This document shows positions 4,108 through 59,501 of a DNA stretch of 61,388 nt, one piece after another. The first letter of the stretch is position 1. The number at the start of each line of letters is the position of its first letter. Below the pieces are notes generated by a model that saw only the letters and a list, made by a program, of their open reading frames with translations, was not told the origin of the DNA and searched no databases. The translations under genes were made by a program, and so were the position numbers. Source of the stretch: a virus (Duplodnaviria; Caudoviricetes); the IMG/VR virus record IMGVR_UViG_3300031228_000006, positions 1 to 61,388 of that record; one strand, 5' to 3'.

Positions 4108-4473
4108 ATGCTGGAGAAGATCGCCCAACTCTTCCTTGCCCACCTGCTCACCTGGGCCGTCGTCGGCATCCTGGGCTCGTACGTGGCCAACGCCTACTAC
4201 ACCGATCTGGAGGGTGTCGACCACCCGGACCAGGTCATGGCGACCCGCCCCGACGCGCCCGGCACCGACCGCGCCCTCTGGACCCAGTACGAGGACAAGT
4301 GCTGGAGGTACGAGGCCAGGGGTGAGGCTACCGGCGCCATCCTGCGCGTCGACCCCAACGACCCGTTCGTTTACACGACCAAGCCCCGGCTGGTCCAGCG
4401 AGCGATCGACCAAGCCGTTAACAAGCACGACCGAGGGCTCGACCGAGTCCTCGCCTTCTGCACCGACAAGTAA
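4108..4473 (+). CDS. membrane-anchored hypothetical protein
   Basis: N-terminal hydrophobic helix. Confidence 0.75.
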   Translation: MLEKIAQLFLAHLLTWAVVGILGSYVANAYYTDLEGVDHPDQVMATRPDAPGTDRALWTQYEDKCWRYEARGEATGAILRVDPNDPFVYTTKPRLVQRAIDQAVNKHDRGLDRVLAFCTDK

Positions 4474-4485
4474 AGGACACCCACC

Positions 4486-4665
4486 ATGATCTGGCTCGCC
4501 CTAGCCGTCACGATCGTCTACGTCTTGACGACCACCACCGTCCTCGCCACCCCGCAGGTGGCCAGCCCTCGCCGTAGCGTCGTCTGCTACCTGGTCACGA
4601 CGTTCTGCGTCGCTTTGGTCTGGTTCACGGCGTACGGCTACTACAACATGCGAGTCCCGGCATGA
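4486..4665 (+). CDS. small membrane protein (2 TM)
   Basis: AAGGA RBS; begins MIWLALAVTIV. Confidence 0.65.
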   Translation: MIWLALAVTIVYVLTTTTVLATPQVASPRRSVVCYLVTTFCVALVWFTAYGYYNMRVPA

Positions 4666-4888: not shown

Positions 4889-4892
4889 ACCC

Positions 4893-5537: not shown

Positions 5538-5552
5538 TCTCACATCGTGGAC
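5538..5552 (+). promoter_or_regulatory. TCTCA-N5-TGGAC operator-like site
   Basis: TCTCAcatcgTGGAC, intergenic. Confidence 0.6.
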
Positions 5553-5616: not shown

Positions 5617-5958
5617 ATGAGCGACCGATACGACCGCCTGCCGAAGTGGGCGCACGAGGAGATCCTTGACCTCCAGCGTCGCGCCCTGGCCGCCGAGAAC
5701 GACGCCACCCTGGCCCGCCGGGAGGCCAGCGAGGCCAACCCCGACACCCGCACCTTTCTGGACGCCGGGTTCGGCCGCGAGGACATCCCGCTTCCCGAGC
5801 GCCAGAACGTCATCTTCAAGTTGCCCAACGGCAAAGTGACCGTCCGCGAGGAGAGCGGCAGCGTCTACGTGAACACCGTCAGTGACGGCAGGACGATCAC
5901 GGTTGTCATGCCGCACGCCTCCAACGCTCTCACGATCGCTCTGGTGGAGATCCGGTGA
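5617..5958 (+). CDS. hypothetical protein
   Basis: 113 aa ORF. Confidence 0.8.
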   Translation: MSDRYDRLPKWAHEEILDLQRRALAAENDATLARREASEANPDTRTFLDAGFGREDIPLPERQNVIFKLPNGKVTVREESGSVYVNTVSDGRTITVVMPHASNALTIALVEIR

Positions 5959-6566
5959 GGACCATCTTCGGCCGGGTCCACATGACCCGTGAGGAGTGGC
6001 TCAACGCCGCCGCCGCCCGGCTGGCCACCGACTTCGATGACGTCTTCGCCGAGCACGGCAAGCCGGAGATCTTCAGGAACGCCATGTACGCGGCCGGATG
6101 GCCGAGCCGTGGCGGCCAGTCCAAGGTGATCGGGCAGTGCTGGCCGACCAGCGCGTCCGGGGTCGCCCACGTCTTCATCAACCCCCGCCTCGGTGAGGAC
6201 ATCGTCGAGGTCCTCGCCACCCTCGCCCACGAGATGGCGCACGCCGCTGACGACTGTGGGTCAGGCCACAAGGGCCCCTTCACCAAGATGATCCGCAAGA
6301 TGGGCCTGACCGGGAAGCCCACGGCCACCGTGGCCGGTGAGGAGTTCGAGGCTTGGGCCAAGTCGGCCGCCGCCGCGCTGGGGCCCTACCCCCACAAGGC
6401 GATCACCGGCGTCAACCCCAACCTGAAGAAGCAGGTCAGCCGCCAGTTGAAGGTGTACGCCAAGGACTGCGACTCCTGCGACTACGTCGCCCGGACCACC
6501 CGCAAGTGGCTGGACGACCTGGGGGCGCCCAAGTGCCCCCACGGCGTCACCATGACCGAAGCCTGA
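5955..6566 (+). CDS. SprT-like zinc metalloprotease domain protein
   Basis: TLAHEMAH (HExxH), downstream GHKGPF and C-terminal Cys motifs. Confidence 0.75.
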   Translation: MRTIFGRVHMTREEWLNAAAARLATDFDDVFAEHGKPEIFRNAMYAAGWPSRGGQSKVIGQCWPTSASGVAHVFINPRLGEDIVEVLATLAHEMAHAADDCGSGHKGPFTKMIRKMGLTGKPTATVAGEEFEAWAKSAAAALGPYPHKAITGVNPNLKKQVSRQLKVYAKDCDSCDYVARTTRKWLDDLGAPKCPHGVTMTEA

Positions 6567-6600
6567 CCCGTTTACACGACCAGAGAGAGACACCCACATC

Positions 6601-8798: not shown

Positions 8799-9418
8799 GA
8801 CGCTCGTGCTCCCTGTGCGGCCAGGAGGTCCGCTGGGGCTGGCGCAACGAGGGCCAGGGCCTGCGACAAGGCTGGTGGCATCGCGACCACGCCACCCACC
8901 CAGCCATCTTCGGCCAGCAGGCTGACCTGAAGACCGTTTACACGCCAGTCCTCCAGCGCCGCCGGGAGAAGAACCCCGACTGGGCCGGATGGACCGACGT
9001 GGACGAGGACGGCGCCAAGATCGAGCCTGAGGCTATCGAGCCCGAGGATGAGCCGATCGAGGACGCCATCCCCGCCCCCGAGGTGCGAGCCACCGGCATC
9101 CACCCCGACGACCCGCGTACGCCGGGCGGCGCCAAGCAGATCTGCAACCTGCTGAAGAAGCACGGCTGGGAACGCCGTCGGCTCTCCTTCGCGCGCGGCC
9201 CTTACCTCGGCGCGAAGAGCGACGTGCTCTCCATCTCCGACCACGTCGTGCTGGTTGCGCGTGTCATCAATAGTGAGGAACGTCGCTACGTCGTATGCTC
9301 ATGGCGAGATGGAAAGTTCGACTCGGCGTGGATCCATTCAAAAGACCTCAACGGCAAGCAGACGATGCTGGACAAGGTGAACGCGAACCAACTCAAGGAA
9401 TGGATCCGAAACGCATGA
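8795..9418 (+). CDS. hypothetical protein
   Basis: GTGA overlap, N-terminal CxxC. Confidence 0.7.
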   Translation: MRRSCSLCGQEVRWGWRNEGQGLRQGWWHRDHATHPAIFGQQADLKTVYTPVLQRRREKNPDWAGWTDVDEDGAKIEPEAIEPEDEPIEDAIPAPEVRATGIHPDDPRTPGGAKQICNLLKKHGWERRRLSFARGPYLGAKSDVLSISDHVVLVARVINSEERRYVVCSWRDGKFDSAWIHSKDLNGKQTMLDKVNANQLKEWIRNA

Positions 9419-9879
9419 CGACGACACCCCTGATCGAGACCTGGAATCAGATCTTCGATGGCAAGTACCGCATCGACGGCGACTGCTTGATCTGGACGAA
9501 ATACTTGAACAACAGGGGCTATGGCGCAGAGACTCGCCAGGGCAGGACATATCTCGCCCATCGCGAGTCCTGGAGGCTCGCGAATCAAGTTGAGATTCCG
9601 GCCGGAATGCAGGTGGATCACTTCACCTGCTTTAACCACGCCTGCATCAACCCGAACCACCTGAAGTTGAAGACACCGTCCGGGAACAACTTCAACCGAA
9701 AAGGTGCCAACCCGAACAATCGCACCTCTGGGTTTAGGAACGTCTACCCGCAGAAGGGCTCATCCACCTGGTATTACCGCATCAGACTAAGGGGTGTGGC
9801 CTATATGGGGTCGGGTTTTGCCACCGCAGAAGAGGCCAACCAGGCCGCCACCACTCACCGAGAGCGACTGTCCCGATGA
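9415..9879 (+). CDS. HNH homing endonuclease with AP2-like C-terminal domain
   Basis: CLIW...AHR...VDH.C.NHACINPNHL...N, then SGFRNVY...W...F.TAEEA. Visibly lower GC than neighbours. Confidence 0.85.
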   Translation: MTTTPLIETWNQIFDGKYRIDGDCLIWTKYLNNRGYGAETRQGRTYLAHRESWRLANQVEIPAGMQVDHFTCFNHACINPNHLKLKTPSGNNFNRKGANPNNRTSGFRNVYPQKGSSTWYYRIRLRGVAYMGSGFATAEEANQAATTHRERLSR

Positions 9880-11959: not shown

Positions 11960-12068
11960 TCGTGGTGAAGGGCTGAGTCGGGCGTTTACACACCCTGCGC
12001 TCAGGTCAGCGAAGAGGCTGTACCTGAGCGTTTGCCCCCTCCCCCTCAGCCGTGGCTGTGTTCGCGTG

Positions 12069-12083
12069 TCTCATCATGTGGAC
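12069..12083 (+). promoter_or_regulatory. TCTCA-N5-TGGAC operator-like site
   Basis: TCTCAtcatgTGGAC. Confidence 0.6.
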
Positions 12084-18683: not shown

Positions 18684-19284
18684 CGACTTCAAACCCCGCA
18701 AGGACGGCTGGTTCGGCCACAAGGGGATCTGGGACGAGGTCACCGTCGGAACGGTGGTGGCCAACCCCCACAAGCGCACCGAGCGGTGGGAGGTGCTCGA
18801 CACCGCCCACGGCGCCGCGATCAACTACGGCGAGACGCTCTGGTTCAAGATGCGTGAACAGACCACCGGCGCCGAGGCCACCTTCCCCCCCAGGATCAAG
18901 ACCATGCCGGTCGAGATCCTCACCCAGAACCCGGCCGACACCACCACCCCCGTTTACACGCCTCCCTCAGACTCGGACGCCATGGCGCTCCTGGTCGAGC
19001 AACTCGGCGCCACGCTGATCGCTACCCGCGATGAGGCCACCGGCGAGGTGACGTGCCCTGGCTACGAGTGGGGCCACGGGCACCAGGAGGGTCCCGGCTC
19101 GGAAAGTCTGCGAGCCGGGATCCTCTACCACCTCCAGGTCGGCCACGGGCTCACGTACCAGCCGACCGGCCGGGTGGACGAGGACACCATGGCCATAGCC
19201 CGTTTACACGACCAGGGTCATCGTCAGCCGAGTGGCGTTGGCTTCCCGCACCGACACGTCCCCGAGGACCTGTCTTTCATGTAA
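18667..19284 (+). CDS. hypothetical protein
   Basis: Begins MKPTSDDF; His-rich C-terminus. Confidence 0.75.
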   Translation: MKPTSDDFKPRKDGWFGHKGIWDEVTVGTVVANPHKRTERWEVLDTAHGAAINYGETLWFKMREQTTGAEATFPPRIKTMPVEILTQNPADTTTPVYTPPSDSDAMALLVEQLGATLIATRDEATGEVTCPGYEWGHGHQEGPGSESLRAGILYHLQVGHGLTYQPTGRVDEDTMAIARLHDQGHRQPSGVGFPHRHVPEDLSFM

Positions 19285-23030: not shown

Positions 23031-23045
23031 TCTCACCATGTGGAC
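23031..23045 (+). promoter_or_regulatory. TCTCA-N5-TGGAC operator-like site upstream of the SSB-like gene
   Basis: TCTCAccatgTGGAC. Confidence 0.6.
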
Positions 23046-24302: not shown

Positions 24303-24960
24303 GCCGTGTAAACACGCCAAGACGATCGGCTGCCCCTACCCGGCCGCGAAGTCTCGGCAGACCTGTATCTGGCACTGGCTGGAAAATCAGCCCGCCAGGA
24401 TCCAGGAGGCCTATGCCCAGCAGCGCCGCGAGAATTCCCTGAAGGTGATCGAGAAACTCAGGTTTCGCGTGCCTGAGTCCGAATGGCCGAACGGCGAGAG
24501 ATTCTGCTCGCTCTGCCAGGGCTTCGTCCCGCTCTTCTACTGCTCGGGCTCGCGCTGCAAGGCCCACGCCAGCAAGGCCAGCCACGCCAGCGCGGTGAAG
24601 TCGAAGTACGGCCTCGAAGACGGGGAGTACGACGCCCTCATGGCTCGGCAGGGCGGCCGGTGCGCTATCTGTCTGGGGCGCCCTCAGGGCAAGCGGTTCG
24701 CCGTGGACCACCACCACCAGACCCTGGAGAACCGGGGCATCCTGTGCTCGCGCTGCAACCACGAGTTGCTCGGGGCGGCCCACGACGACCCGAAAATGCT
24801 CTGGAGGGCCCTGGCGTACCTGCTGATGCCCCCGGCCCAGTTCTCAGCCTCCAAGCGCAACAGGGACGCCCTGCTGGCCCGCCTGGCAGAGGTTTTAACC
24901 CCGGTCACCGTCTTGCGTACGCCGCCCAGCCTGGGGGATGATGAGAGACCGCCCTTCTGA
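24289..24960 (+). CDS. endonuclease VII family protein (Holliday junction resolvase-like)
   Basis: KYGL...Y..L...QGGRCAIC...AVDHHH...RGILCSRCN..LG; ends DDERPPF. Confidence 0.85.
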   Translation: MAKTRPCKHAKTIGCPYPAAKSRQTCIWHWLENQPARIQEAYAQQRRENSLKVIEKLRFRVPESEWPNGERFCSLCQGFVPLFYCSGSRCKAHASKASHASAVKSKYGLEDGEYDALMARQGGRCAICLGRPQGKRFAVDHHHQTLENRGILCSRCNHELLGAAHDDPKMLWRALAYLLMPPAQFSASKRNRDALLARLAEVLTPVTVLRTPPSLGDDERPPF

Positions 24961-25310
24961 TGGGCGGTCGAAAAGATCCCGAGGCTCGGCGCCAGTACGA
25001 CGCCGAATACCGCGCTGCCAATCGCGAGAAGATCGTTGACACTGTCAGGTGGATCAAGATTCTTCAGAAGTTTGGCCTAACCAAAGAAGCGTGGCACGCA
25101 CTGCTGGATTCCCAAGGCGGAAGATGCGCAGTCTGCGGAAGTGATTCACCCGGCGGCAGGGGGCAGTGGCACACAGACCACTGCCACAAAACGAACAAGG
25201 TTCGCGGCCTACTATGCGCCGGGTGCAACCGTGGAATCGGACTCCTAAAAGACGATCCAAACGTCCTTCTAGCCGCCGCCATCTATCTAGAACTGAACTC
25301 ACCTGAGTAG
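24960..25310 (+). CDS. second endonuclease VII family protein (lower GC, possibly homing)
   Basis: KFGLT...QGGRCAVC...TDHCH.T.KVRGLLC..CN.GIG..KDD. Confidence 0.85.
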   Translation: MGGRKDPEARRQYDAEYRAANREKIVDTVRWIKILQKFGLTKEAWHALLDSQGGRCAVCGSDSPGGRGQWHTDHCHKTNKVRGLLCAGCNRGIGLLKDDPNVLLAAAIYLELNSPE

Positions 25311-25314
25311 CGAA

Positions 25315-25428
25315 GCAACTCGACCCCGGACTCATTCGATCCGGGGTCGAGTTGCACCTGAGGTAGCGAATCTCGGCTAGCCCCAGCATACGCGACAGCG
25401 CCCCTGGTCAATGACCAGGGGCGCTGTC
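25315..25428. terminator. Two hairpins at the convergence of the two genome arms
   Basis: GCAACTCGACCCCGGA/TCCGGGGTCGAGTTGC (25315-25355) and GACAGCGCCCCTGGTC/GACCAGGGGCGCTGTC (25394-25428). Confidence 0.75.
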
Positions 25429-25439
25429 TGTACGGTGAG

Positions 25440-26141: not shown

Positions 26142-26601
26142 CTTCATCATCTCCAAAGATCTGCTCAGCGATCGCCTGCTCAGCACCCATGATGATCTTC
26201 TCCCGATAGGCGACGTCGATCAGGATCTGAAGTTGGAAGTACCTGAGCGCACAGGCGATCCCCCAGGCCAGGATGATCCCGGCCGATATGGTGGCTGCCG
26301 ACCCAGCGAAGACCAGGATCAGAATCGCGTAGAAGACGGTAGCGACGCTGACCATGGCCGAGCCAACCTGCTCGATGATGATTCCGTTGATCGACTGGAT
26401 CCACATCCCCATCAGGGCGATGGCCGATCCGACAATCAAGGTCCCGTTCCAGACGTAGATACCCCACCGAGGCAGGACAAATTCCAGCGCTCCCGGCTCG
26501 GCTCTGAGCGCCAGGGCGACCACTCCAGAGAACACCGAGAAGGCCAGGATGAACACGGCGCGAGGATCCGCCGGGAATCGAGAGGCCGCACTGAAGATCA
26601 T
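26134..26601 (-). CDS. multi-TM membrane protein (lysis cassette)
   Basis: Four hydrophobic segments. Confidence 0.7.
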   Translation of the reverse strand: MIFSAASRFPADPRAVFILAFSVFSGVVALALRAEPGALEFVLPRWGIYVWNGTLIVGSAIALMGMWIQSINGIIIEQVGSAMVSVATVFYAILILVFAGSAATISAGIILAWGIACALRYFQLQILIDVAYREKIIMGAEQAIAEQIFGDDEDG

Positions 26602-26656
26602 GTGCCCATGGTATCTCACTAGGAGACCAGCCCGTTTACACGACCGAAGAATCGAT

Positions 26657-32397: not shown

Positions 32398-32400
32398 CGT

Positions 32401-33372
32401 TTACACGGCCCGCGAGGAGAAGACCACCTGGACGAAGGCGGTCGCCGTGCTGGAGACCTGCATGTTGCCGGTGCCAGCGGTGCGGTAAGCGCGCATCGAG
32501 AGGGTCTGACTGGTGCCGCGCATCGCTGAAGGGATGGCGGCCTCTCCGCCAATCGTCAGGCCACGGTAGACGTCGAGGTCCTCGTTGATGTTCAGGTTGG
32601 CGATGTCGACGGTGCCCAGGCGCACGAGAGAGACCCCGGTGAAGGAGTTGGGCGAGCCCTCCATCCGAACACCTTCGAGGTTGGCGATGATGTCGACGTG
32701 GGTTGCCCAGGAGGGTACGTCGACCGACCAGGTCGCCGTGCTCGGGAAGACCACGCCGGGATCGGCGGCCGTCAGCGTCTGGAGCGAGCCGGGGCCGATC
32801 GCGCGCTTCGTGGTCCGGTCGGTCATCGGCCGGGCGACCTTGCGCAGGTCGTGGATCATCGCGTTGGTGATGGTCGTGGTACTGGCCGGGATGTCGATCC
32901 GAGCCAGGGGGAGGTTGGGGTAGGCAGCCCCGGAGATCGTGGTGGATCCACCAGCGACCGGCACGAGGACCGCTCGGACGTAGTCGAAGGTGGCCTCCTC
33001 GCCGACGGGCGGGTCATCGGTACCCATGAACGGGTGACCGACCTGGGAGAACTCGGGGTCTCCGACCACGATGGCGAGGATGTAGGACTGCGCCGAGGGG
33101 TTCGAGCCGGGCATCTCGCCCGAGGACACGATGTGAACCGACGGGTTCGAGACACCGTAGGTCTCGTTGGGAACCGCCTGGTAGCGGTTCAGGATCGAGC
33201 CGGAACCGGCCGAGATCTGCACGCCGACGCCGGGGGTGTCCAGTTGGGCCACCTTCAGGTCGCCGGGCGAGACGATGCCCTGATTCGGGTTGGCCGTGTA
33301 GGCCTGACCTCGCGCCAGCGAGGCGGACATGAGGGCCCCGTCGATTGCCCAAGCGGCTCCAACAAGTGTCAT
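32401..33372 (-). CDS. minor tail protein
   Basis: GDLKV...GVQISAG...LARIDIPASTTTITNAMIHDLR motif typical of actinophage minor tail proteins. Confidence 0.75.
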   Translation of the reverse strand: MTLVGAAWAIDGALMSASLARGQAYTANPNQGIVSPGDLKVAQLDTPGVGVQISAGSGSILNRYQAVPNETYGVSNPSVHIVSSGEMPGSNPSAQSYILAIVVGDPEFSQVGHPFMGTDDPPVGEEATFDYVRAVLVPVAGGSTTISGAAYPNLPLARIDIPASTTTITNAMIHDLRKVARPMTDRTTKRAIGPGSLQTLTAADPGVVFPSTATWSVDVPSWATHVDIIANLEGVRMEGSPNSFTGVSLVRLGTVDIANLNINEDLDVYRGLTIGGEAAIPSAMRGTSQTLSMRAYRTAGTGNMQVSSTATAFVQVVFSSRAV

Positions 33373-34290: not shown

Positions 34291-37200
34291 GATCCCGGGC
34301 CCCCTACTCCTGCGTACTTGCCGCCTCGATTGAACTTGTGGAACTGGAAGTTGAGATCCCCGGCCACGTCCTCGGCGGTCAGGTCACTGCCCTCGAAGTG
34401 CGGCTCGTAGTGGACGCCAGCCCCGGTTCCGCCGCCCATCTTAGCGAACTGGTCGGCCGTGAATACGGGCTCCGGCTTACCGGTCAGGTTGACCACCGTG
34501 GTCAGACCCGGCGGCAGGTAGCCGCCGCTGTCGTACATCATGGTGCCGTTGTTCGCCAGCCCTGTGCCGTCGTACGCAGGGCCATCGTTCTCACCGTAGA
34601 TGCCACCCTCGTCGTACCAGTTGTTCCGGTTGTGGAACGCCAGGGCAGCGATCGGCGAGCCGTAGCGGTCGGCGATGTAGCGAGCCCCGGCGGCAGCCTG
34701 TTCGGCCGGGCTGGCGTTCTTGGACAGGCCGTACGCCGCCCGGGTGCTGTCCAGGAACTGGAAGAGGCCGTACGCCGTTGAGGTCGGGTTGTCCGCCTTC
34801 GGGTTCCAGGAGGACTCCTTGCTGATCAGGGTCGACAGCGCGTTCCACTGAGCGCCCTTGGCCCAGGACGGGTGGCCCTCGCCGACAGCCTTGCGAACCT
34901 GGTCCTGGACACTGCCGCCGACGATCTTGCTGATGGCGCCGGACAGCATCCCGAGCGGAGTCATCGAGGCCACGTCGCTGACCCAGTCCGGGATGATGTC
35001 CTTCATCTTGCTGATGACCCCGGGGATCAACTTCTTGGGGACCTCGCTGATGATCTTGTGGAACGGCGAGTCGCCCAGTTCCTCCAGCGGCTTGGAGATC
35101 CAGCCCTTGACCACGTCGGCCGGACCCTTCAGGAAGTCCTTGACCGCGTTGGGGACGCTGAAGCCGCTGGCCTGACCGTAACCAGCCTTGGCAGCACCGG
35201 ACAGGAGCGCCATCGCGGCGCCGTAGGAGCCGCCGGGGAAGCCGAAGTGAAGGTGAGGCCCGGAGGAGTTGCCCGTCGATCCCACGTTGCCGATGTACTG
35301 CCCGGCGGCGACCGTCTGACCGACCTTGACGGCGGTCCGGCTGGAGTGACCGTAGACCAGCGTGCCGTACTTCGACTGCTGGAAGATGGCGTTGCCGTAG
35401 CCCCGGCCGGAGCCGACGTAGACGATGTTGCCCGGGACGGCGGCGTAGTAGGGCTTGCCGTTATCGTTGGGCGCGTTCAGGTCGACGCCGTCGTGGCCAG
35501 GGTAGGTAGAGGCACTGCCGCCCGGGAGCGGCCAGAAGACGCCGCCCTTGGCGTACGCCTGTCCGCCTTCGAGAACCTGCTTCAGGCCGTTTACACCCTT
35601 CTTCCGGGCGATGGCGTTGAGGCGGTGAATGTTCGAGGGGCCGATCGCGGCGGTGAACTCGGGGCGCATGATCGCCTCGCCGCCAGACAGGTGCAGGCGT
35701 CCGCCGGTGGGGGAGTAGAAGTCGTGCACGTCGCGGCCCGGGGTGTAGCCGGGCATGATGCCGCCGGACCTGAACCGGTTGGCGTTCTTGGCGCCCTGGG
35801 CGGTGAGCGTGTTCTTCTTGCTGGACTCGCCGGTCAGCCACTTCGGCGGGGTAATGTTGCTGATCTGGGTCTTGGCGCCGACCTTGCGGCCCAGCGAGTT
35901 CATGCCATCGATCAGAGCGTTCAGAATCTTGAACCCAACGATGATCGGGCTCGCCAGAACCTTCCGGAGCCCGCTCCAGTAGTCGGAGACCCTGGCAACC
36001 ACCCAGCGGAAGGCCTCGGCCAGCGGCGAAAGCCGCTTCTTCATGCCGTCGAACAGCGGCTGGCCCCACTTGTTCCAGGCCGCCCTGAGCGCCTTGACCG
36101 TGATCTCCCAGACCAACTTGATCGCCTGGAATACCGGCTTGATCACGTTCTTCCAGGTCCAGGAGAAGACCTTGCCCATCGTGGTGAGCCACGGGACCAG
36201 GATGTTCTTGATGTACCAGGCGATCCCTCGGATGACGGCGCCGAAGACCTTGCCCAGAACCGGGATGATCTTGGTGGCAGCCCAGAGGATGATCGGGCCG
36301 AGCCACTTGAAGAAGGGGAGCAGGACCTCCTTCCAGAGCACCATGAAGGCCGCCTGGAGTTCGGTGAGGGCGGGCTTGATGTCCTTCTCCCACGCCTTCA
36401 TGAAGGCGGCCGAGATCTCAGCCCAGGCCTTCTTGATCCACTTCCGGAAGGCCTCGTTCTCGCGAGCGAACCCGGCCAGGGCGACGCTCAGAGCAACGAA
36501 GACGCCGACGAAGATGGCCCACAGCGGAGCCGTCGCGACGGCCGTGGCGACGGCGGCCAGGGCGATCGAGGACAGGACGGCGCTGATGCCGAAGAAGGCA
36601 GCCATGACTACCGTCAGGACCTTCTGGAGGGTCGCCGAATCCATCTGAGCGATCCACTCGGCGAAAGCCGTGACGATCCCGATGACGACCTCGCCGACCG
36701 GCGCCAGCGCCTTCATCACGTTGAAGACGGCACCGCCGATGGCCCGGAAGAACCTCACGACCTTGGGGCCAACCCGCTGGACATAGTCCAGGAAGTCCTG
36801 GATATCCTCCCGGCCCTTCTTCGAGGAGGCCCAGTCGGCGAAGGCGGTAGCGATCCTCTCGATGCCCCGAGCGAACAGCAGGGCGAAGGGGGCGCTGACC
36901 GTCAGGATGCTGGCCAGCGCTTCAAGGAACTTGATGAAGGCGTTGCCGTACGCCTTCTGAATCTCGGGCCCGAGGGTGCCCAGCATCCGGAAGAAGCCGC
37001 CCCAGGCGTCGCCCTGGAAGGACACGCTGAGCGCCTTGGTGAACTCGCCGAACCCGGCGGCCAGCCCGATGAGGGATCTGGCCAAGGTCGAGGCGTTCTC
37101 GCTGGAGAGGAAGCCGCTCAGGGCCTCCTGGATGGCAGGCAGCATCGCCGCCTGCACCGCGTCACGGAAGCGGTAGAACCCGGCCGTCAGGGAGGCGATG

Positions 37201-39121: not shown

Positions 39122-39847
39122 TTATTCTACCGGCTCGGGCGGGGTGCTCTTGTGCGGCAGCATCCGGGCCACCAGGCTCCTGTGCGACCTCTCCTTGCGC
39201 TCCATGGTCGCCTTCACCATCGCTGTCTGGAGGGGGCTCATCGGACGCTCGCGAGGCTTCGGCGGCTGGCCCGCCTTCTGGCCCAACTGGACGGCGGCCA
39301 CGGTGTGGGCGACGTGTCGTACGGCGTCGTAGACGTCCTCCAGGAGGCTGGCCTCGCGGGTCCAGCCGATCATCGAGAGAGGCTTCTTCTGGTCGTCCTG
39401 GGCCTTCCGATTCGCCATGGCCTCGGCGAGCATCTTCATGTGCTCCTCGTCATCCCCGACGGCGCTGGCGTAGTGCGAGTGAGCGGGCAGGCGATCGATG
39501 ATGGCCAGGAGCGTACGCCAGCGCCGCGAGCGCCACATCTCGACCAGGTCGACGCCGAGCGGGGTCAGGTCGGTAGTGAGGGCGTCACGGTAGTGGTCAG
39601 CCAGGTAGGTCAGGCGCCGAGCCTGGTCGAAGGGCGGCAGGTCGTGAGCCAGTCGCCATCGCTCGAAGACCTGGGCGCGCTTCCACTCCGGCATGGAGGG
39701 GGTGTCGGGGGCGTGCTCCAGGTAGAGGTACTGAAGCACGACCTGGAAGTGCATCGCCCGAGGGTTAGGCAGTGTAAACGTCCTGCCAGCATGCCTGATC
39801 CTGAGATCGTCGCCGACGGCGTACTCCAGGCTGTCGATGTCGCCCAT
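39122..39847 (-). CDS. tail assembly chaperone (pre-tape-measure)
   Basis: Own RBS (GAAGGAG); LAIIDRLP..S motif; directly upstream of the TMP. Confidence 0.65.
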   Translation of the reverse strand: MGDIDSLEYAVGDDLRIRHAGRTFTLPNPRAMHFQVVLQYLYLEHAPDTPSMPEWKRAQVFERWRLAHDLPPFDQARRLTYLADHYRDALTTDLTPLGVDLVEMWRSRRWRTLLAIIDRLPAHSHYASAVGDDEEHMKMLAEAMANRKAQDDQKKPLSMIGWTREASLLEDVYDAVRHVAHTVAAVQLGQKAGQPPKPRERPMSPLQTAMVKATMERKERSHRSLVARMLPHKSTPPEPVE

Positions 39848-42025: not shown

Positions 42026-42105
42026 CTTGCCTCCATAGGTCAGGGTTGCTTGGGTCTTCAGCGCCCCAAGCCTAGGAGGCACGTCTTCTCAGCCCAGTTT
42101 ACACG
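42026..42105 (-). promoter_or_regulatory. Conserved structured leader, copy 1 (major tail)
   Basis: 42057-42089 is identical to 47281-47313; anti-SD/SD stem plus inner hairpin. Confidence 0.8.
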
Positions 42106-42106
42106 T

Positions 42107-43253: not shown

Positions 43254-43792
43254 CAGCCCTGGCCGCCCGGGTCGCCCGGATTGAAGAGGGGGATCTTCCA
43301 CTCGCGCGGGTCGGACGAGGTGGAGAGGTTGATCTGCTGGTCGTCGCCGACGTACAGGGTCTCGACCGGTAGCAGGGACTCGGGGCCAGGCGAGGTCGGG
43401 ATGGTGAAGACCTCACCGGCGCCCTCGGGCGGGTTCGGGTCGCCGTCCGGGTTGTACTTGGTGATCGTCGTACGCTCGGACTTGGTCAGATCCATGAAGA
43501 GCGCGTAGTCGTCCACGTGGCGGTCTCCGCCGATCGGGCCGACGTTACCCTCTGCGACCACCTGGGTCGGGTTCTCGTAGGAGCGTTTACACACCTGGAG
43601 GACGACCATCTCGACGTCGAGCGGAACCCGGTTCTCGCCCGGGTCGAGCGTCCAGTCGACGTTTCCGCCGAGGAAGCGAGCCAGGTTCGACATCTTCTCG
43701 CAGATCTCGATCGCGAGGGGGTCCTCTTCGACCTCGTCCTCGTCGTTCTGCGTCCACGCGGCCAGAGTGCCGAAGGTGATCAGGTTCGCCAT
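43253..43792 (-). CDS. head-to-tail adaptor
   Basis: VP.DVEMVVLQVCKRSYENP...LTKSER motif. Confidence 0.75.
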   Translation of the reverse strand: MANLITFGTLAAWTQNDEDEVEEDPLAIEICEKMSNLARFLGGNVDWTLDPGENRVPLDVEMVVLQVCKRSYENPTQVVAEGNVGPIGGDRHVDDYALFMDLTKSERTTITKYNPDGDPNPPEGAGEVFTIPTSPGPESLLPVETLYVGDDQQINLSTSSDPREWKIPLFNPGDPGGQG

Positions 43793-44095: not shown

Positions 44096-45299
44096 GGATG
44101 CGGTCCTCTTTCTCGACTGAAACGATGCGGTTCTCCGCTGCTACGGAGTATACGCGAGACTCACTAGCCACGGTCGTCATTCGGCCGGGGTCGGGGGTGA
44201 CGTCGGACGGCGGCGGCTGGAACCGCAGGAAGCCCCCGGAGACCGAGTCAGACTGGCCGCTGACCGGCAGGGCGAGCGCGATGACGCCCCCGGAGCCGGA
44301 CGTCGCTGCCGAGGTTCCCGAGACGCCCAGGGCGGCCGAGGTTTCGATCGTAGAGGTGCTCGTGCTGGCCGACTCGCCGGACACCGGGATCCGGGCCGCG
44401 ATATCGAGCGAGGAGTCACTCAGGGTGGCCGTCTCGCCCGACATGGGTTTCCGGGCCGCGATTGCCAGCGAGGAGTCGCTGATCGATTCGGAGGTCCCGG
44501 CGATCGGGCGCGTGGCGGCAATCTCCGCCGAGCCGGACGACGAGGACTCGGACGGCCCCGAGGTCACCGTGGCATTCAGAGTGGGGGTCAGCGACGAGGC
44601 CGAGGCGCTCGCGCTCGTGCCGGAGATGGCGTACGCCGTACCGGGCGGGGGCGGGTCTACAGCGTTGATCGCGAAGACCAGTCGCTCGCACGACATGCTC
44701 GTGATCGTCGAGGTGGCCGCCGAGGAGTACGTCGCCCCGACCTGATCTTCGAGGTAGGAAAGCGAGTAGCCGTAGCCGTCGGTCACCGCCAGGGGTACGC
44801 CGGTGTCCACAGCCTCGGCGCCGTTGCTCCAGGTGAACGACGACGGCGTCGCGCCGGTGATGTCCTGGCCGACGACTGCCGCTCGGAAGTCGGCCGCAGC
44901 GGTCAGGCCAGACAGCGAGGGCCCGGCGCCGCCAGAGGCTGAAACATTTCCCTGTGCGGCGGAGCCGATGAAGGCCGATCCGGCGGCGAACTCATAGATG
45001 TCGAAGACGACCGGGTAGTTCGAGCCGTTGTGCGTCGTGGAGAAGGTGTCGCCACCGGCGGCCGTCCGGTACCAGAGGTAGAGACCGGTGTTGTTGACCG
45101 CCGAGCCCCCGGCGGGCAGCGTCCAGCCGCTCGGGGTCGTGCTCGTCACGGCACCCTCGGCCAGGACGACCAGGAGCCGCCCGGCGGTCGGTGTAAACGC
45201 GCTGCCAGCGACAACCGTCCCAGAGGCCGGATTGACCGTGTGCGAGTTCGTGCCGTTGCGCGGGGCGGCGATGGTGACGTGGTTCAGCCACTTGACCAT
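44076..45299 (-). CDS. putative head/neck fibre protein with Ser/Ala-rich ~19-aa repeats
   Basis: Beta-rich N-terminal domain followed by (I/V)SG.S...S.SS..I repeats. Confidence 0.6.
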   Translation of the reverse strand: MVKWLNHVTIAAPRNGTNSHTVNPASGTVVAGSAFTPTAGRLLVVLAEGAVTSTTPSGWTLPAGGSAVNNTGLYLWYRTAAGGDTFSTTHNGSNYPVVFDIYEFAAGSAFIGSAAQGNVSASGGAGPSLSGLTAAADFRAAVVGQDITGATPSSFTWSNGAEAVDTGVPLAVTDGYGYSLSYLEDQVGATYSSAATSTITSMSCERLVFAINAVDPPPPGTAYAISGTSASASASSLTPTLNATVTSGPSESSSSGSAEIAATRPIAGTSESISDSSLAIAARKPMSGETATLSDSSLDIAARIPVSGESASTSTSTIETSAALGVSGTSAATSGSGGVIALALPVSGQSDSVSGGFLRFQPPPSDVTPDPGRMTTVASESRVYSVAAENRIVSVEKEDRIHGVDPA

Positions 45300-47247: not shown

Positions 47248-47330
47248 GAGCGGCCTCCTTAGGAACTTGGGTTGCTTGGGTTCAGCGCCCCAAGCCTAGG
47301 AGGCACGTCTTCTTCAGCCAGTTTACACGG
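47248..47330 (-). promoter_or_regulatory. Conserved structured leader, copy 2 (major capsid)
   Basis: Near-identical to 42026-42105. Confidence 0.8.
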
Positions 47331-47338
47331 CTTAAGGT

Positions 47339-47993: not shown

Positions 47994-48049
47994 TGCCTCT
48001 TGACATCTCTAGTGTGGATCAGGCTATCAGATTGACTCGTGTAAACGAC

Positions 48050-50342: not shown

Positions 50343-50422
50343 CGTGTCCTCCTGGAGATCGTGTAAACGCGAGTAGTGACATCGTACCGGAGCCCGGCGG
50401 CCCGAGCCGCCAAGCACCGGTA

Positions 50423-52053: not shown

Positions 52054-54057
52054 CTAGCCCCAGATCTCTCCGGGCTGCTCTTCCTCTTCCTCCTCGAAGG
52101 CGTTGAGCACCATCCGGGCGAGCATGCGGGCGCCGACCAGACAGACCGCGCCGTCGATCTTGCGGTTCGACTCGCGGTGCTCCTTGGCCAGCGAGGTGCC
52201 GAACCCGCGCGAGTCCGCGAACTCGACGGCGTTGCCGATGTGATTGACCAGAGCCGGGTGTCCGTCGAAGAGGAAGTTGGGGGCGTACTCCTCAACGTCG
52301 TTGATCGTCTCGAAGTCCTCGACCGTCTGCTCCGCGCTCTTGATGAAGGCCTTCAGGTTCGGCACCACCGACATGTCGAAGTTGATCGCGTGGGTACCGA
52401 CGCCGGACTTGACCGGCCAGTACTTCTTGTCGAGGCGGTCCTTGTAGGCCTGCATCCAGGCGTCGAACATCGGCATCCAGTACGACGTCTCGGTGGTCTC
52501 GTCCTTGGCGTGCGATGGGTCGCCCCACATGGCCACCACGTTGAAGCGGTCGAAAGCCATCTTCACACGCTGGCCCACGGCGGCCCTGGGGGCGAGCCAA
52601 CCCTTACCACGCTCGCCATCGGGCTTGGCCCACAGGCCGACCAGGAAGCAGTAGCCGTCCGAGAGGCGGCAGCCGACCAGGGCCGTGGCGTCGTCCGACT
52701 TCGAGCCGTCGAAGAAGAGCACGATCTGGTCGGCGGGGTTGATCAGCGTCCAGCCGCACTCCAGCAGGGCCAGTTCGGCCGAGTGTCCGGCGCGGGCCCG
52801 GTTCTCCCTCGCCATCGGGTGGATCGCGGCCTTGACGGCGGCCGGGTCGACCCAGGTCTCCTCGGAGGCGACGATCTGGTTGTACCAGAACCGGCGAGAC
52901 TCGGACATCGAGTTCTCGCTGGAGAGGATGAAGTTGGTCAGTGCCTCGATCTCCAGCCACCAGGAGCCGCCGCGCACCGCTCCGAGCACGCGCCCGATGT
53001 AGCGGATCGTCAGCATGTCCTTGATGTCGCCGGGGATCTCGGGGCCCTGGTAGTCCTTCGCCTCATCAGGGAAGATCGGGCGCAGGCGAGCGTCCTTCGG
53101 TGCCTCCAGGCTGTCGTAGGCCACGCCGGTGTAGAAGGCCTGGCCCGCCATCTCCTTGTCGTACGACTCGCGCACCAGGCGACCGACGGACTCCTCGTTC
53201 GGGTTGTAGGCGTTCGTGATCCAGAGCACCCGGGCACCGCCGCCCTTGGCCTTGGTGATGTTTCGCACGATCGCCTTGCGCATCTCCAGACCACCGTTGG
53301 ACTTGACCCACTGGTGGGGCTCGTTGCCGATGATCAGCGTTGGCCGGTTGCCCTCCAGGGTTCGAGGGGAGGAGGTCACGGCCTCGATCGCCTTCTGGCC
53401 GCCGTACGCGTAGATGACCGTCTTGCCAGGGTCGATCTTGTGCTCGGCGATGCACTTGTCAGTGAAGATGCCCAGGAACAACTTCATCGTGTTCTTGGTC
53501 TGGTCGAGCGAGACGGCGGCGGTCTGGATCCACGCGCGCGGGTGTGGGCGCGCGACCGGGTCCTTGGCCTTCAGGCCCTTGTCCGGCAGCGGCTCCTTCG
53601 TCCAGCCAGCGAACCGGCAGGGGCCGACGAACTCGATGGCCGCGATGAAGGCCGCGAGAGGATCCTTGCCCCAACCCTTCAATCTTTGCCAAGTTACTTG
53701 TCTTTGGATGAACTTGCCGCGCTCGTCGATGGCGTAGAACCACAGGATCATCCGGACCTGCTCGGCCGTCGGCTTGAAGGGCAGGCGGTTGTTGTTCTCG
53801 TCCACCTCCTCGCCGAGAAGGTTCTCCTTGGCCCAGTGGATCGCCTGGTAGCCGAGAGTGAAGTGCGGAAGGATGTAGCCCTGCTTGTCGCGCGGGCCGT
53901 CCCAGTCGGGGTCCTTGGACCACACCGGCCCCAGGCACTCGGGGATGACCTCCCAGTCGACGTTGCCCGTCACCCAGTCAGCGGTGGTCGGCTGCCCGAG
54001 CGTGTAAACGCCGGGAGGCTTCACGCCGACGCCCGGCTCGTCAAGCAGGGTGGTCAC
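52054..54057 (-). CDS. terL: terminase large subunit
   Basis: QRLKGWGKDP Walker A (L5-like), FDGSKSDDATAL nuclease motif, KIDGAV. Confidence 0.95.
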   Translation of the reverse strand: MTTLLDEPGVGVKPPGVYTLGQPTTADWVTGNVDWEVIPECLGPVWSKDPDWDGPRDKQGYILPHFTLGYQAIHWAKENLLGEEVDENNNRLPFKPTAEQVRMILWFYAIDERGKFIQRQVTWQRLKGWGKDPLAAFIAAIEFVGPCRFAGWTKEPLPDKGLKAKDPVARPHPRAWIQTAAVSLDQTKNTMKLFLGIFTDKCIAEHKIDPGKTVIYAYGGQKAIEAVTSSPRTLEGNRPTLIIGNEPHQWVKSNGGLEMRKAIVRNITKAKGGGARVLWITNAYNPNEESVGRLVRESYDKEMAGQAFYTGVAYDSLEAPKDARLRPIFPDEAKDYQGPEIPGDIKDMLTIRYIGRVLGAVRGGSWWLEIEALTNFILSSENSMSESRRFWYNQIVASEETWVDPAAVKAAIHPMARENRARAGHSAELALLECGWTLINPADQIVLFFDGSKSDDATALVGCRLSDGYCFLVGLWAKPDGERGKGWLAPRAAVGQRVKMAFDRFNVVAMWGDPSHAKDETTETSYWMPMFDAWMQAYKDRLDKKYWPVKSGVGTHAINFDMSVVPNLKAFIKSAEQTVEDFETINDVEEYAPNFLFDGHPALVNHIGNAVEFADSRGFGTSLAKEHRESNRKIDGAVCLVGARMLARMVLNAFEEEEEEQPGEIWG

Positions 54058-57109: not shown

Positions 57110-57119
57110 CTGGGGCCTC

Positions 57120-59501
57120 CTAGTTGCCGAAGAGCGAGTTGTTGGTGTAGATGCCAGCGCGCGACTCTGCCTTCAGGCCGACGCCGAGAGTGTAGTTCCT
57201 GCCGTTGGACTTCTGCACCTGGAGCGTGACGCCGAACAGGTCCTTGATCGTCTTGCGGATCAGATGGGCCGACCGATGCGGCGCGTCGCCCTCCAGGTGG
57301 AGCGCGAGGGCGTCGCGGAGATCGTCGGCGCTCTCCCGGTATCCGTCGCCCAGGATCAGGTCCTCACGTACAAACTTCCGGATCCGGTCGTGGTCGTCCA
57401 GGGCGGCCTCTCGCAGGGCGTTGGCCTCGTCCTCGTTGGAGATCTCCCACGCCTGGTCGAAGAGTACCCGGTGAGCGATGGCAGCCGCCTCGGCCGGGAG
57501 TTGCTCCTCCATGTCGGCCTGCCGTACGTAATCCTCGGACCGCTGGAAGTGGACCGAGGTGAAGCGCCGGAACAGCGCCTTGCCCTGGTCGGGAAGCGGG
57601 GCATCGTCCTCGTTCGAGAGCACGATCACCACGCGCTTGAAATCCTCGGTGTACGCGGTCTTGTTCTTCGGGTTGATCCGGACCTGGCCGTCGGAGAGTT
57701 TCTTCAGCCAGGCCACGATGACCCGGGGCGAGACCGTCTTCGAGGATTCCATCTCCTCAAAGACGATGAAGGGCTTGTCGGCGACGTCTTCGAGGGCGTG
57801 GGAGTCGCGCTCCAGGTCGGCCATCGAGAGCACGCCGACCGAGTCCTGACCGAAGGCGGCCTTCAGGATCTTCACGGTCATGCCCTTGCCGGTGCCGCCG
57901 TCGCCCCGGAACTCATAGACCCCGTTCTCCAACTGGAAGATGCGACGCAGCGCCAGGCCGTAGAGGCGACGCTGGGCGGGGTCGGCGAGGCCGTTGCGCA
58001 GGATCAGGTCGAGCATCGGCGTCGGGCCCGGAGCGGGATCGTAGTCCACCGGCTTTCGCAGCGTCATGTAGTCGTTGGTGGGCTCGATCCACTGGTTGCG
58101 CTGGGGGTCGTACCAGCGAGTCTTGAAGAGCACCAGTGGCCGCCTCTGGGTCTGGCCCCGGAAGACGTCCGGGCGCCACTCCTCGTGCTGTCCCTGGGGG
58201 CCCATCCCCGAGGCCATGACCGTGCGGGTGATGATGCCGGTGACCGTGGCCGTGGGGACCATCCGCTGGATCACGGTGTACTTGCTACCGTCGGGCTTCT
58301 CCTTGCGGGCCTGGACCTTCAGCGTGTTCAGCCAGGAGGTGACCATGTGGTCGATCTGAGCCTTGTCGAAGGCCGTCCACTGGTCGTTTACACGAGCCAT
58401 CAGGGTGCCCATGCCCCGGTAGAGCGGCTTGGACTCGGTGAGGAAGTTCGCCCTGGTGAAGTCGTCGGCGAGATACCAGGGCATGTCGCCCTCGTCCTCG
58501 TAGATCGTCTTCGCATCGGGTGGAGACATCTCATCATCGGACTCGCCAAAAGGGCGGGTCGACGGCGCCTCGAACCTGATGCTCGGGTTGTTGAAGCCGA
58601 CGAGATCGTTGATGTCGTTGTCGACGCTGGCGCCCAGCGGGCTGTTGAAGCCCTCGCGCAGGGCCTTGATCATCGTGTTGCGCTGGTGATGGTCGAACGG
58701 GAAGCGGCCGTTGGCCCGGCAGGCCTCCTGGACGAGTTCGACCGCGCGCTCCTTGGTCAGGATCCCACCGGCGGCAAGGCCTCCGATGATGAAGCAGGAG
58801 CGGTTCAGGGTGGAGTGCTTGTCGCCGTCCTGGGCGGCCAGGAGCATCCCCAGGGCGTTGCGCAGGCGTACGTCGGACTCGTCGATGTTGACCTCGACGG
58901 CCTCGGTGACGGCGGCCAGCGACTTCTTCTTCTGGGCTTCCTTCTCGTCCTGCCAGGAGCACAGGGTCTCGAAGAGCCAGTCCGGCATCGGGATCGGGTC
59001 GGACTCGTCCTCGATGCGGTAGCCGGTGCCGTCCGAGCACGAGGAAGGCGGGGCGAAGACGATGCGGCCGTTGGCCCGCAGGTCGACCGCGCCCATCTTG
59101 ATGTCGTCCACCTTGTGGAGCGCCAGGCCGGTGTCGTTCTTCGTGAACCGCTCCATGCGCTCGTCCCACGCGAAGCCGTAGTGCTTGCCGAACGAGCGGG
59201 TCTCCACCGTCCAGGTCTCGGGCTCGCCATGCTCGGCGAGGAGGGCGTCCCAGCGCGGGCAATCGCCGTCCACGTCCACGAGCATCACGCCGGAGATCGA
59301 GCCGGTGCGTACGCCGACCGCCTCCGCCGCCGAGGAGCCCGGCCGCTGGACCGGCATGTCCGCCGTCGCCTTCTCCCAGGCCTCGACGCCTTCAAGGACC
59401 TTCTTGCCGTCGGCGTCGATCGCGATCCGGTTGATGTACACCGTGGGCCAGCCTCGCGACTGGTAGTCCTCGGCGGCCCTCTCGATCGGGGTGAGTTCCA
59501 A
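57120..59501 (-). CDS. bifunctional DNA primase-polymerase with C-terminal SF3 (D5-like) helicase
   Basis: GVRTG...VDVD...T.S.GKH...VDLR...APPS (prim-pol) and GDGGTGKG (Walker A). Confidence 0.85.
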   Translation of the reverse strand: MELTPIERAAEDYQSRGWPTVYINRIAIDADGKKVLEGVEAWEKATADMPVQRPGSSAAEAVGVRTGSISGVMLVDVDGDCPRWDALLAEHGEPETWTVETRSFGKHYGFAWDERMERFTKNDTGLALHKVDDIKMGAVDLRANGRIVFAPPSSCSDGTGYRIEDESDPIPMPDWLFETLCSWQDEKEAQKKKSLAAVTEAVEVNIDESDVRLRNALGMLLAAQDGDKHSTLNRSCFIIGGLAAGGILTKERAVELVQEACRANGRFPFDHHQRNTMIKALREGFNSPLGASVDNDINDLVGFNNPSIRFEAPSTRPFGESDDEMSPPDAKTIYEDEGDMPWYLADDFTRANFLTESKPLYRGMGTLMARVNDQWTAFDKAQIDHMVTSWLNTLKVQARKEKPDGSKYTVIQRMVPTATVTGIITRTVMASGMGPQGQHEEWRPDVFRGQTQRRPLVLFKTRWYDPQRNQWIEPTNDYMTLRKPVDYDPAPGPTPMLDLILRNGLADPAQRRLYGLALRRIFQLENGVYEFRGDGGTGKGMTVKILKAAFGQDSVGVLSMADLERDSHALEDVADKPFIVFEEMESSKTVSPRVIVAWLKKLSDGQVRINPKNKTAYTEDFKRVVIVLSNEDDAPLPDQGKALFRRFTSVHFQRSEDYVRQADMEEQLPAEAAAIAHRVLFDQAWEISNEDEANALREAALDDHDRIRKFVREDLILGDGYRESADDLRDALALHLEGDAPHRSAHLIRKTIKDLFGVTLQVQKSNGRNYTLGVGLKAESRAGIYTNNSLFGN

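Follow-up and report, generated by a model that had tools for sequence, protein, structure and literature searches.

Which protein, if any, reads a short word that a phage repeats across its genome, within genes as well as between them? The window analyzed here, IMG/VR record IMGVR_UViG_3300031228_000006, is a whole and complete phage genome of 61,388 base pairs (bp) with 65% GC, and it carries the 8-mer GTTTACAC in 20 exact copies. Comparative analysis indicates that a conserved 8-bp element, GTTTA(A/C)AC, takes the form GTTTACAC in high-GC genomes and is a hallmark of those phages, prophages, and plasmid-like elements (some of the latter) that encode one family of SprT-like zinc-ribbon proteins, represented in the window by gene g15. 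The pairing of word and gene family, found in many unrelated phages, is apparently undescribed. We tentatively propose that the g15 protein recognizes GTTTACAC as its cognate site on DNA and that the copies are dispersed, stoperator-like operators; binding and function are what we infer here, and we give this reading a little short of an even chance.

Enrichment and Placement of the 8-mer

All 20 copies reported in a first-pass annotation, made from the sequence alone, were recovered, 14 on the + strand and 6 on the - strand (Table 1). That annotation had put the expectation below one copy, which agrees with dinucleotide shuffling (0.31 expected, largest count 2); 20 copies were reached in none of 100 shuffles. 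Under a third-order Markov model, GTTTACAC is the top over-represented 8-mer of the genome (20 copies versus 0.35), every one of the 20 occurrences of TTTACAC and the 20 of GTTTACA falls within it, and the 10-mer CGTTTACACG is present 12 times versus 0.04 expected. The flanking C and G that had been pointed out are frequent, with C at position -1 in 17/20 copies and G at +8 in 15/20. The 24 one-mismatch variants total 6 copies versus 10 expected; because they are not enriched, the element is an exact, all-or-none 8-mer.

Twelve of the 20 copies are fully coding. As a codon-aware null, we applied synonymous shuffles within genes or from the genome-wide codon pool, 200 of each. Coding copies averaged 0.75 (maximum, 4) in the within-gene shuffles and 0.26 (maximum, 3) in the pooled ones, and 12 were reached in 0/200 of either kind. 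The enrichment therefore persists (12 coding copies versus 0.26 to 0.75) under the comparison that had been named beforehand as able to overturn it. The coding copies do use otherwise avoided codons, as had been remarked: GTT, GTA, and CGT make up 7%, 4.5%, and 8.8% of the codons for their amino acids, and TTA, TTT, ACA, and AAA make up 0.2%, 4%, 2.4%, and 4.8%. Shuffles, rare codons, and exactness all support the earlier proposal of selection on the motif at the DNA level, and they strongly indicate that the copies are real and selected as DNA. Two ideas about the form of the word were tried and rejected: a hairpin loop, suggested by short flanking inverted repeats seen by eye, since position counts showed complementarity only at C(-1)/G(+8), and TTTACA as a -35 hexamer, since no conserved -10 element lies 16 to 18 nucleotides (nt) downstream in the window.

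The copies are spaced more evenly than random placement would have them, with a gap coefficient of variation of 0.62 in the window (P=0.026) against ~0.93. Six other motif-bearing genomes gave values of 0.38 to 0.77 versus a null near 0.93, and the evenness reached p <=0.03 in 5/7 genomes. The first-pass claim that there is no strict polarity relative to transcription held up: in the window, 11 copies follow the direction of transcription and 9 oppose it, and over 132 sites in seven genomes the split is 87 to 45. Strand polarity along the replicon is likewise absent, the 14 + and 6 - copies being interleaved. The word is most simply read as the target of a protein, as the annotation had supposed.

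Copies had also been placed at gene boundaries and in capsid and tail leaders, and this was confirmed for both leaders and for 8/20 copies that are intergenic or overlap a stop codon. These eight lie in ~10% of the genome, making the motif ~6-fold denser in noncoding DNA, and six of them lie 0 to 15 nt past a stop codon. Across the seven genomes, 71/132 sites are intergenic though ~89% of the DNA is coding, a strong enrichment; many copies are coding all the same. Same-sense coding copies are in the frame GTT TAC ACN in 36/42 cases, and antisense copies are in the frame NGT GTA AAC in 17/19. Such cheapest-frame placement is expected when selection acts on the DNA word and the protein sequence adapts to it. 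Together, even spacing and tolerance of rare codons show the strength with which a DNA-level signal can shape phage coding sequence.

The late leaders of the tail tube gene g73 (42026-42106) and the major capsid gene g82 (47248-47338), both genes on the - strand, are nearly identical over ~60 nt. On the gene strand, they consist of GTGTAAAC, ~22 nt, TAGGCT, a CTTGGG/CCCAAG hairpin, and a ribosome-binding site. A related arrangement is also present at 26557-26656.

Co-occurrence with a SprT-like Gene Family

Among IMG/VR fragments with ~70% identical capsid proteins, the motif occurs 12 times in 124 kb versus 0.17 expected, and in L015, which has a 93% identical large terminase and 87 to 90% identical DNA, both copies in the aligned region are kept. 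The structural relatives G001 (complete, 59.6 kb) and G002 have 0 copies. A group with 39% terminase identity is rich in the motif (20 copies in 44 kb in G006, 19 in G007, 15 in G009, and 9 in G008), and the reversed-word control gave 0 in this group. Phages of three actinobacterial genera share the word: Arthrobacter phages of cluster AZ, Tweety19 (27 copies), Lizalica (24), and Emotion (17), Microbacterium phages UtzChips (23), Zeta1847 (22), IAmGroot (18), and Gretchen (14), and Streptomyces phage LazerLemon (40). A palindromic sister word, GTTTAAAC, is found in lower-GC phages; for example, Enterobacter phage Arya has 7 copies, one of them ~20 nt upstream of its SprT-like gene. As a separate observation, the motif-free relative G001 has a GC-rich repeat of its own, AGGCAGGGCA, in 17 copies versus 0.3 expected.

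G011, an actinobacterial contig of 12.8 Mb, contains 53 distinct sites, 21 of them within the 61.5 kb around a SprT-like gene. Genome-wide, the contig has 58 matches versus 58 for the reversed-word control, with the remaining chromosome at background. The motif is specific to a prophage-sized island in G011 and is not host-wide, and it clusters around a SprT-like gene likewise in two other genomes.

The gene that goes with the word was sought by comparing gene content. By tblastn and blastp, g15 is the only nonstructural window protein present in G006, G007, G009, Tweety19, and Zeta1847 (47 to 50% identity), and G001, with 0 motif copies, has no g15-type gene. We then retrieved 80 IMG/VR SprT loci with a g15-family alignment and ran 65 window genes from the left arm and the end by jackhmmer. 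That g15 matches 80/80 of these loci is expected by construction, and hence circular, because the loci were retrieved with that alignment; the informative contrast is that the sigma-like g27 and the DUF7239 protein g14 match 2/80 each. The 80 loci contain 511 GTTTA(A/C)AC sites in 1.04 Mb, with at least 3 sites in 67/80. As a control, 74 loci were retrieved with the large terminase, five G006-group loci having been set aside; they contain 2 sites in 0.84 Mb, with at least 3 sites in 0/74, and none encodes the g15 family. In 53/80 IMG/VR loci, the SprT-like gene has a site close by, at most ~150 nt away on the upstream side or 120 nt on the downstream side, whereas a random 190-nt window holds one 10% of the time.

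This distribution bears on the first-pass suggestion of a host protein or a Chi-like site. A host-factor target, whether a recombination signal like Chi or a binding site for a nucleoid protein, would fit an exact 8-mer that is evenly spaced at about one copy per 3 kb, features that resemble Escherichia coli Chi. However, the hosts span Arthrobacter, Microbacterium, and Streptomyces, the sister word GTTTAAAC is found in lower-GC phages, strand polarity is absent, the 74 other actinophage-like loci have the 2 copies just given, and G011 is not enriched outside its prophage island. We find a host factor barely credible. Nothing favors the modification mark that had also been considered: methyltransferase families matched none of the predicted window proteins.

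The form of the word also varies with the form of the protein, and loci free of GTTTACAC have abundant GTTTAAAC in its place. In the "VRVAGKW" protein subgroup, GTTTAAAC occurs 123 times versus 7.1 expected, in 18/18 loci; in two further subgroups, the counts are 46 versus 1.3 (10/10 loci) and 39 versus 2.1 (6/6 loci). High-GC members of the family have GTTTACAC alone, and both words are present in a few loci. Zinc-ribbon residue 182 is Thr in 20/21 ACAC-type proteins versus 8/49 AAAC-type proteins. The motif-bearing actinophage proteins have in common a C-terminal "KKQxTRMxK ... GYxVRxTxKW" signature, and four motif-free EB-type Microbacterium phages have "KSRSGKSIK ... YVVSISKAR" at the same place. 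These contrasts in residue 182 and the C-terminal signature are suggestive but confounded by phylogeny.

Two simpler predictors were discarded. The identity level of the SprT-like protein does not predict the motif, since LazerLemon at 38.6% has 40 copies and ChiliPepper at 43.8% has none, and "GYxVRxTxKW" is not the sole determinant of ACAC versus AAAC, since the same stretch accompanies both variants.

Promoter Contexts in Relatives

In other phages, the motif occupies defined positions in promoter-like sequences. Copies in Zeta1847 lie in the arrangement TTGCGC, a 17-nt spacer containing the motif in either orientation, TATGAT, 7 nt, and a leaderless ATG; at other Zeta1847 copies, the reverse word provides the -10 hexamer TAAACT. 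G006-type phages have TTGCGC, 18 nt, and TACACT, with the word providing the -10 hexamer, and in Tweety19 the word immediately follows TAGACT. Judged by their sequence context, these sites in Zeta1847, the G006-type phages, and Tweety19 occupy operator-like positions within core promoters.

Such contexts also raise the idea that a sigma factor encoded by the phage, which in the window would be g27, uses the word as a promoter element. The g27 product is sigma-like, with a weak match to sigma-70 region 4, the TTTACA within the word resembles the -35 hexamer consensus, and the motif provides a TANNNT hexamer in the G006-type phages. However, orientation is mixed, placement with respect to -35 and -10 varies from phage to phage (spacer, -10, or start region), the Zeta1847 motif sits in either orientation between the hexamers of an otherwise complete promoter, and g27-type proteins are missing from 78/80 SprT loci. 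A sigma-factor element is very unlikely, and it and the host factor are the two alternatives that fail direct tests in this analysis.

In G006, G007, and G009, motif-containing repeats crowd the variable early regions, and copies flank the SprT-like gene. This would suit a boundary or recombination signal for cassette exchange that spreads with the SprT-like cassette, as would the many copies at junctions and those that supply a stop codon, both in lower-GC phages and at 32399 in the window. Against such a signal stand the rare-codon copies inside conserved structural genes and the genome-wide even spacing, and 8 bp is too short for ordinary homologous exchange. We leave it only a slim chance.

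Two further arrangements were observed in relatives. In the right arm of Zeta1847 (L111), ~13 small genes start with ATGACGAACACC (Met-Thr-Asn-Thr), each behind a near-identical leaderless promoter containing the motif. In three IMG/VR phages with GC of 0.42 to 0.43 (L167, L171, and L187), many genes end in ...GAGAGC GTT TAA AC, the palindrome giving the stop codon, and a ribosome-binding site or a hairpin with a promoter-like box follows. Intergenic copies in the same three, when oriented by the nearest gene, are flanked by A-R-A-G-C before and A after.

The g15 Protein as Candidate Reader

The assignment of g15 to the SprT-like proteins (Table 1) draws on several comparisons. Its score against the Pfam SprT-like family PF10263 is 18.3 bits (E=0.002), below the 25.6-bit curated cutoff, and among the matches listed, PF10263 is carried by 4/120 g15 homologues. 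The protein matches phrog_6361 (E=1e-41), orthologues are annotated as SprT-like protease in phage records, and H92, E93, and H96 of the HExxH motif are invariant across 50 family members. Searches by sequence gave 0 matches in the PDB at E up to 10 and 0 in NCBIfam.

An AlphaFold2 model of g15 has a predicted local distance difference test score of 90.6. The best fold match of its core by VIA-align is SPRTN (6mdx_A; Z 8.4, root mean square deviation 3.4 over 100 residues, g15 residues 9 to 126), followed by abylysin, selecase, and Wss1 (5xbn; Z 6.7). Besides SPRTN, there are weak fold matches to CapP and IrrE. Foldseek returned nothing at E <=0.001, with E values of 0.05 to 0.4 only, and the C-terminal zinc ribbon (~residues 160 to 203) lies outside every fold match.

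Like SPRTN, Wss1, and SprT proteases, g15 combines an HExxH core and a predicted SPRTN-like fold with a C-terminal zinc-binding module. Unlike them, it scores below threshold in Pfam, and a role in crosslink repair is not indicated. To our knowledge, the known members bind DNA without sequence specificity and have no link to a genomic word. Given the comparisons between genomes, g15 is the candidate cognate protein of GTTTACAC. The first-pass annotation had found no repressor evident; comparative genomics now singles out this phage gene as the candidate partner of the motif.

Published work on related phages adds a phenotype. According to two studies, phages of clusters AZ and EH form stable, immune lysogens, and their repressor has not been identified (PMC8758107; bioRxiv 10.1101/2025.05.26.655371). 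The second describes Liebe, with a frameshift-truncated SprT-like gene and clear plaques, and Maureen, which is four nucleotides from Liebe and has turbid plaques (bioRxiv 10.1101/2025.05.26.655371). For several actinophage groups, these observations and the sequence comparisons point to g15-type proteins and GTTTACAC as candidate repressor and operator.

A second phage protein could instead read the motif, be it an undetected small DNA-binding repressor or the sigma-like protein, with the SprT-like protease acting as a processing or antirepressor enzyme as in ImmA/ImmR, IrrE/DdrO, and CapP/CapH. The weak fold matches of g15 to CapP and IrrE agree with this, a divergent sigma-like protein is present in every motif-bearing genome examined in detail, and small proteins diverge beyond BLAST tracking. 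However, no second gene co-occurs (g27 and g14 reach only the 2/80 SprT loci each given above), ChiliPepper has the AZ-type sigma-like gene but not the motif, and the clear plaques of Liebe fit a lost repressor better than a lost antirepressor. A separate reader of this kind is, in our view, doubtful.

The protease could also be the point of the system, with the sites stationing or activating it on phage DNA to degrade DNA-bound or crosslinked host proteins (silencers, defense proteins, or trapped topoisomerases) in maintenance or counter-defense. Even spacing and copies inside genes suit such docking, as do the best fold match, the DNA-activated crosslink protease SPRTN (Z 8.4), and the intact HExxH that is invariant across the 50 members. 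There is a precedent in ArdC, described as a DNA-binding metalloprotease directed against restriction (PMC7213743). On the other side are the core-promoter positions of the motif in relatives, its clustering beside the SprT-like gene itself, and the lysogeny phenotype of Liebe, which points elsewhere; nor is a target protein known. We consider protease stationing improbable. By our own estimate, the alternatives rank in the order partner protein, protease stationing, cassette boundary, sigma element, and host factor.

A Stoperator-like Reading

The reading that we favor, with g15 as reader of dispersed operators, builds on enrichment, exactness, even spacing, co-occurrence, co-variation of the variants, gene linkage, and core-promoter positions in relatives, all of them observed. 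The zinc-ribbon end of g15 would read the exact 8-mer on double-stranded DNA. Noncoding copies would overlap or abut promoters and gene junctions, and copies within genes would be retained despite their rare-codon cost, leaving no stretch of the genome far from a site. In this way g15 might keep transcription in check, or set its timing, across the whole genome in the manner of cluster A stoperators, and the protease domain may render the regulator inactivatable through self-cleavage or cleavage of a partner. That g15 binds the sites directly, that repression results, and that the protease domain plays any part are all steps that we infer.

Stoperators of the L5 gp71 type are 13- to 14-bp asymmetric words in 20 to 35 copies, at gene junctions and at a true operator, through which one phage protein silences transcription. 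Numerous repressor sites across the phage genome have likewise been described for stoperators (PMC9283540). Like these, GTTTACAC is short and asymmetric, and its 20 copies are evenly spaced over 4.4 to 58.4 kb. Unlike these, it is 8 to 10 bp long, has no consistent orientation (11:9), and has many copies in genes. No helix-turn-helix (HTH) repressor homologue was found, the candidate reader being a SprT-like zinc-ribbon metalloprotease, and the GTTTACAC/GTTTAAAC system spans phages of several phyla. In ImmA/ImmR, IrrE/DdrO, and CapP/CapH, a zinc metalloprotease is similarly tied to DNA-bound transcription control of a mobile element or stress regulon; those systems use two proteins and palindromic operators near genes only, whereas we propose one polypeptide and genome-wide sites.

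Short repeats of other kinds have been reported in Microbacterium phages. Clusters EC, EF, EG, and EI have conserved short repeats 14 to 30 bp upstream of start codons, with a role given as unknown (PMC7302621). Unlike GTTTACAC, these are described as 13 to 30 bp long, in 5 to 12 copies, intergenic only, uniform in orientation, and cluster specific (PMC7302621). The strings "tttaca," "gtttac," and "tgtaaa" have 0 occurrences in PMC7302621, and GTTTACAC is not in it. "tttaca" also has 0 occurrences in PMC8758107 and in the preprint text (bioRxiv 10.1101/2025.05.26.655371), and "gtttac" has 0 in the preprint, whose supplements may hold its "repeat sequences (data not shown)." Among the literature matches listed for GTTTACAC and GTGTAAAC, there are only primers and unrelated uses, and a search for GTTTAAAC with phage and SprT gave one unrelated paper; the other literature searches likewise yielded no description of the motif.

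Several points weigh against g15 as a stoperator-type repressor. Association and co-variation are confounded by phylogeny and GC content, and the control loci are of different origin from the SprT loci. The g15 family alone is not sufficient for the motif: four EB-type Microbacterium phages with orthologues 35 to 44% identical have 0 to 1 copies of either word, Pseudomonas phage Epa5 and Bordetella phage FP1 have 0 to 1 copies, and the site count is below 3 in 13/80 IMG/VR loci. A distant, classical SprT-like protein (jackhmmer E=2.5e-19) is encoded by G001, which has no copy of the motif. A set of 80 loci from bacterial genomes, many of them Sphingomonadales, has 164 sites versus ~19 expected from base composition, but 60 of the 164 lie inside the SprT-like open reading frame itself, so that a conserved coding feature may give part of this signal. 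It is unusual for a transcription factor to require an all-or-none 8-mer, and the mixed orientation of this one (11:9 in the window and 87:45 across genomes) differs from that of classical stoperators, which are oriented. Promoter contexts in the window are heterogeneous rather than clear-cut, with 12/20 copies within genes. Finally, neither an integrase nor a classical repressor was detected in the window with Pfam and PHROGs, which makes a role in lysogeny uncertain for this phage; among the predicted proteins, searched in Pfam (96 proteins) and PHROGs (84 proteins), none matched a repressor or HTH repressor family.

A bolder proposal extends the g15 reading to a cross-phylum system in which a SprT-like metalloprotease would be the sequence-specific reader of an exact 8-mer (GTTTACAC/GTTTAAAC), scattered evenly by phages over their genomes, structural genes included. 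This protein would be the long-sought immunity repressor of AZ/EH-type actinophages, with its built-in protease as the induction switch; the window phage would then be a distant carrier that acquired the gene and the word only. As a whole, this is on balance unlikely. If the pairing itself holds, it names the protein and operator of the control system missing in the two AZ/EH studies and adds a sequence-specific DNA-reading role to the SprT/SPRTN superfamily. The density of GTTTA(A/C)AC would then be a simple signature by which elements of this kind, whether phage, prophage, or plasmid-like, could be recognized in genomic and metagenomic sequence. The first-pass interpretation survives in part: DNA-level selection, absence of polarity, and a protein target stand, the host or Chi-like option is disfavored, nothing was found in favor of the modification mark, and the missing repressor now has a candidate.

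Genome Setting and Other Features of the Window

A codon-usage model predicted 96 genes, with ~90% of the window coding and ~10% noncoding. Genes at 1.2 to 25 kb are on the + strand and those at 25.4 to 59.5 kb on the - strand, the latter block encoding products for lysis, tail, head, terminase, helicase, and primase-polymerase. The window has no close relative in the curated phage collection, where megablast found only a 120-bp tape-measure stretch and the best match of the large terminase is 39% identical; the primase-polymerase used as query gave no matches in IMG/VR. Searches of the window for transfer RNA (tRNA) and transfer-messenger RNA (tmRNA) gave 0, as did Rfam at gathering thresholds.

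Table 1. Copies of GTTTACAC, gene g15, and matches to a second repeated word in the window
Feature	Positions	Strand	Location or description	Orientation to gene	Remark
GTTTACAC	4369-4376	+	Inside g9 (4108-4473, +)	Sense	GTT TAC ACG
GTTTACAC	6570-6577	+	3 nt past g15 stop, 23 nt ahead of g16 start		
GTTTACAC	8936-8943	+	Inside g22	Sense	GTT TAC ACG
GTTTACAC	11984-11991	+	Intergenic, 59 nt past g27 stop		After terminator-like hairpin
GTTTACAC	18952-18959	+	Inside g46	Sense	GTT TAC ACG
GTTTACAC	19202-19209	+	Inside g46		Read CGT TTA CAC (TTA, 0.2% of Leu codons)
GTTTACAC	24306-24313	-	nt 18-25 of g57 (endonuclease VII)	Antisense	
GTTTACAC	26634-26641	+	Intergenic, 15 nt past g61 stop, 77 nt ahead of g60 start (- genes)	Antisense	
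GTTTACAC	32356-32363	+	nt 35-42 of g63 (minor tail protein)	Antisense	
GTTTACAC	32399-32406	+	g64/g63 junction		Gene strand GTG TAA ACG ATG; motif gives g64 stop codon
GTTTACAC	35589-35596	+	Inside tape measure gene g66	Antisense	
GTTTACAC	39772-39779	-	nt 69-76 of g67 (tail assembly chaperone)	Sense	
GTTTACAC	42097-42104	+	2 nt past g74 stop		5' edge of conserved leader of g73 (tail tube)
GTTTACAC	43585-43592	+	Inside g77	Antisense	
GTTTACAC	45191-45198	-	nt 102-109 of g79	Sense	
GTTTACAC	47321-47328	+	10 nt past g83 stop		5' edge of conserved leader of g82 (major capsid), as at 42097
GTTTACAC	48039-48046	-	3 nt past g84 stop, 79 nt ahead of scaffold gene g83		Kept in L015
GTTTACAC	50361-50368	-	18 nt ahead of portal gene g85 start		Directly upstream of AGGAGG; kept in L015
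GTTTACAC	54002-54009	-	nt 49-56 of large terminase gene g88	Sense	GTT TAC ACG
GTTTACAC	58386-58393	+	Inside primase-polymerase gene g92	Antisense	
g15	5955-6566	+	SprT-like protein of 203 amino acids		HEMAH at residues 92-96; C-terminal Cys/His zinc ribbon
TCTCACCATGTGGAC	535-549	+			
TCTCACCATGTGGAC	2816-2830	+			
TCTCACCATGTGGAC	5538-5552	+			
TCTCACCATGTGGAC	12069-12083	+			
TCTCACCATGTGGAC	23031-23045	+			
TCTCACCATGTGGAC	59990-60004	+			
TCTCACCATGTGGAC	61352-61366	-			

The left end (1-1239) is a 1.2-kb noncoding stretch of lower GC with several copies of a caggaggat-type repeat, in which no tRNA, tmRNA, or Rfam family was found. Two regions called "intergenic" by the codon-usage caller, 9419-9875 and 24961-25439, look coding by eye and differ in composition; they are possibly foreign insertions of HNH or endonuclease type. 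The second repeated word, TCTCACCATGTGGAC, has 7 matches with up to 3 mismatches in the window versus 1.9 expected. Its matches are mostly at the beginning of larger noncoding gaps, often with a hairpin and a CTAGTG-like box after them, and it may be an early promoter or terminator module.

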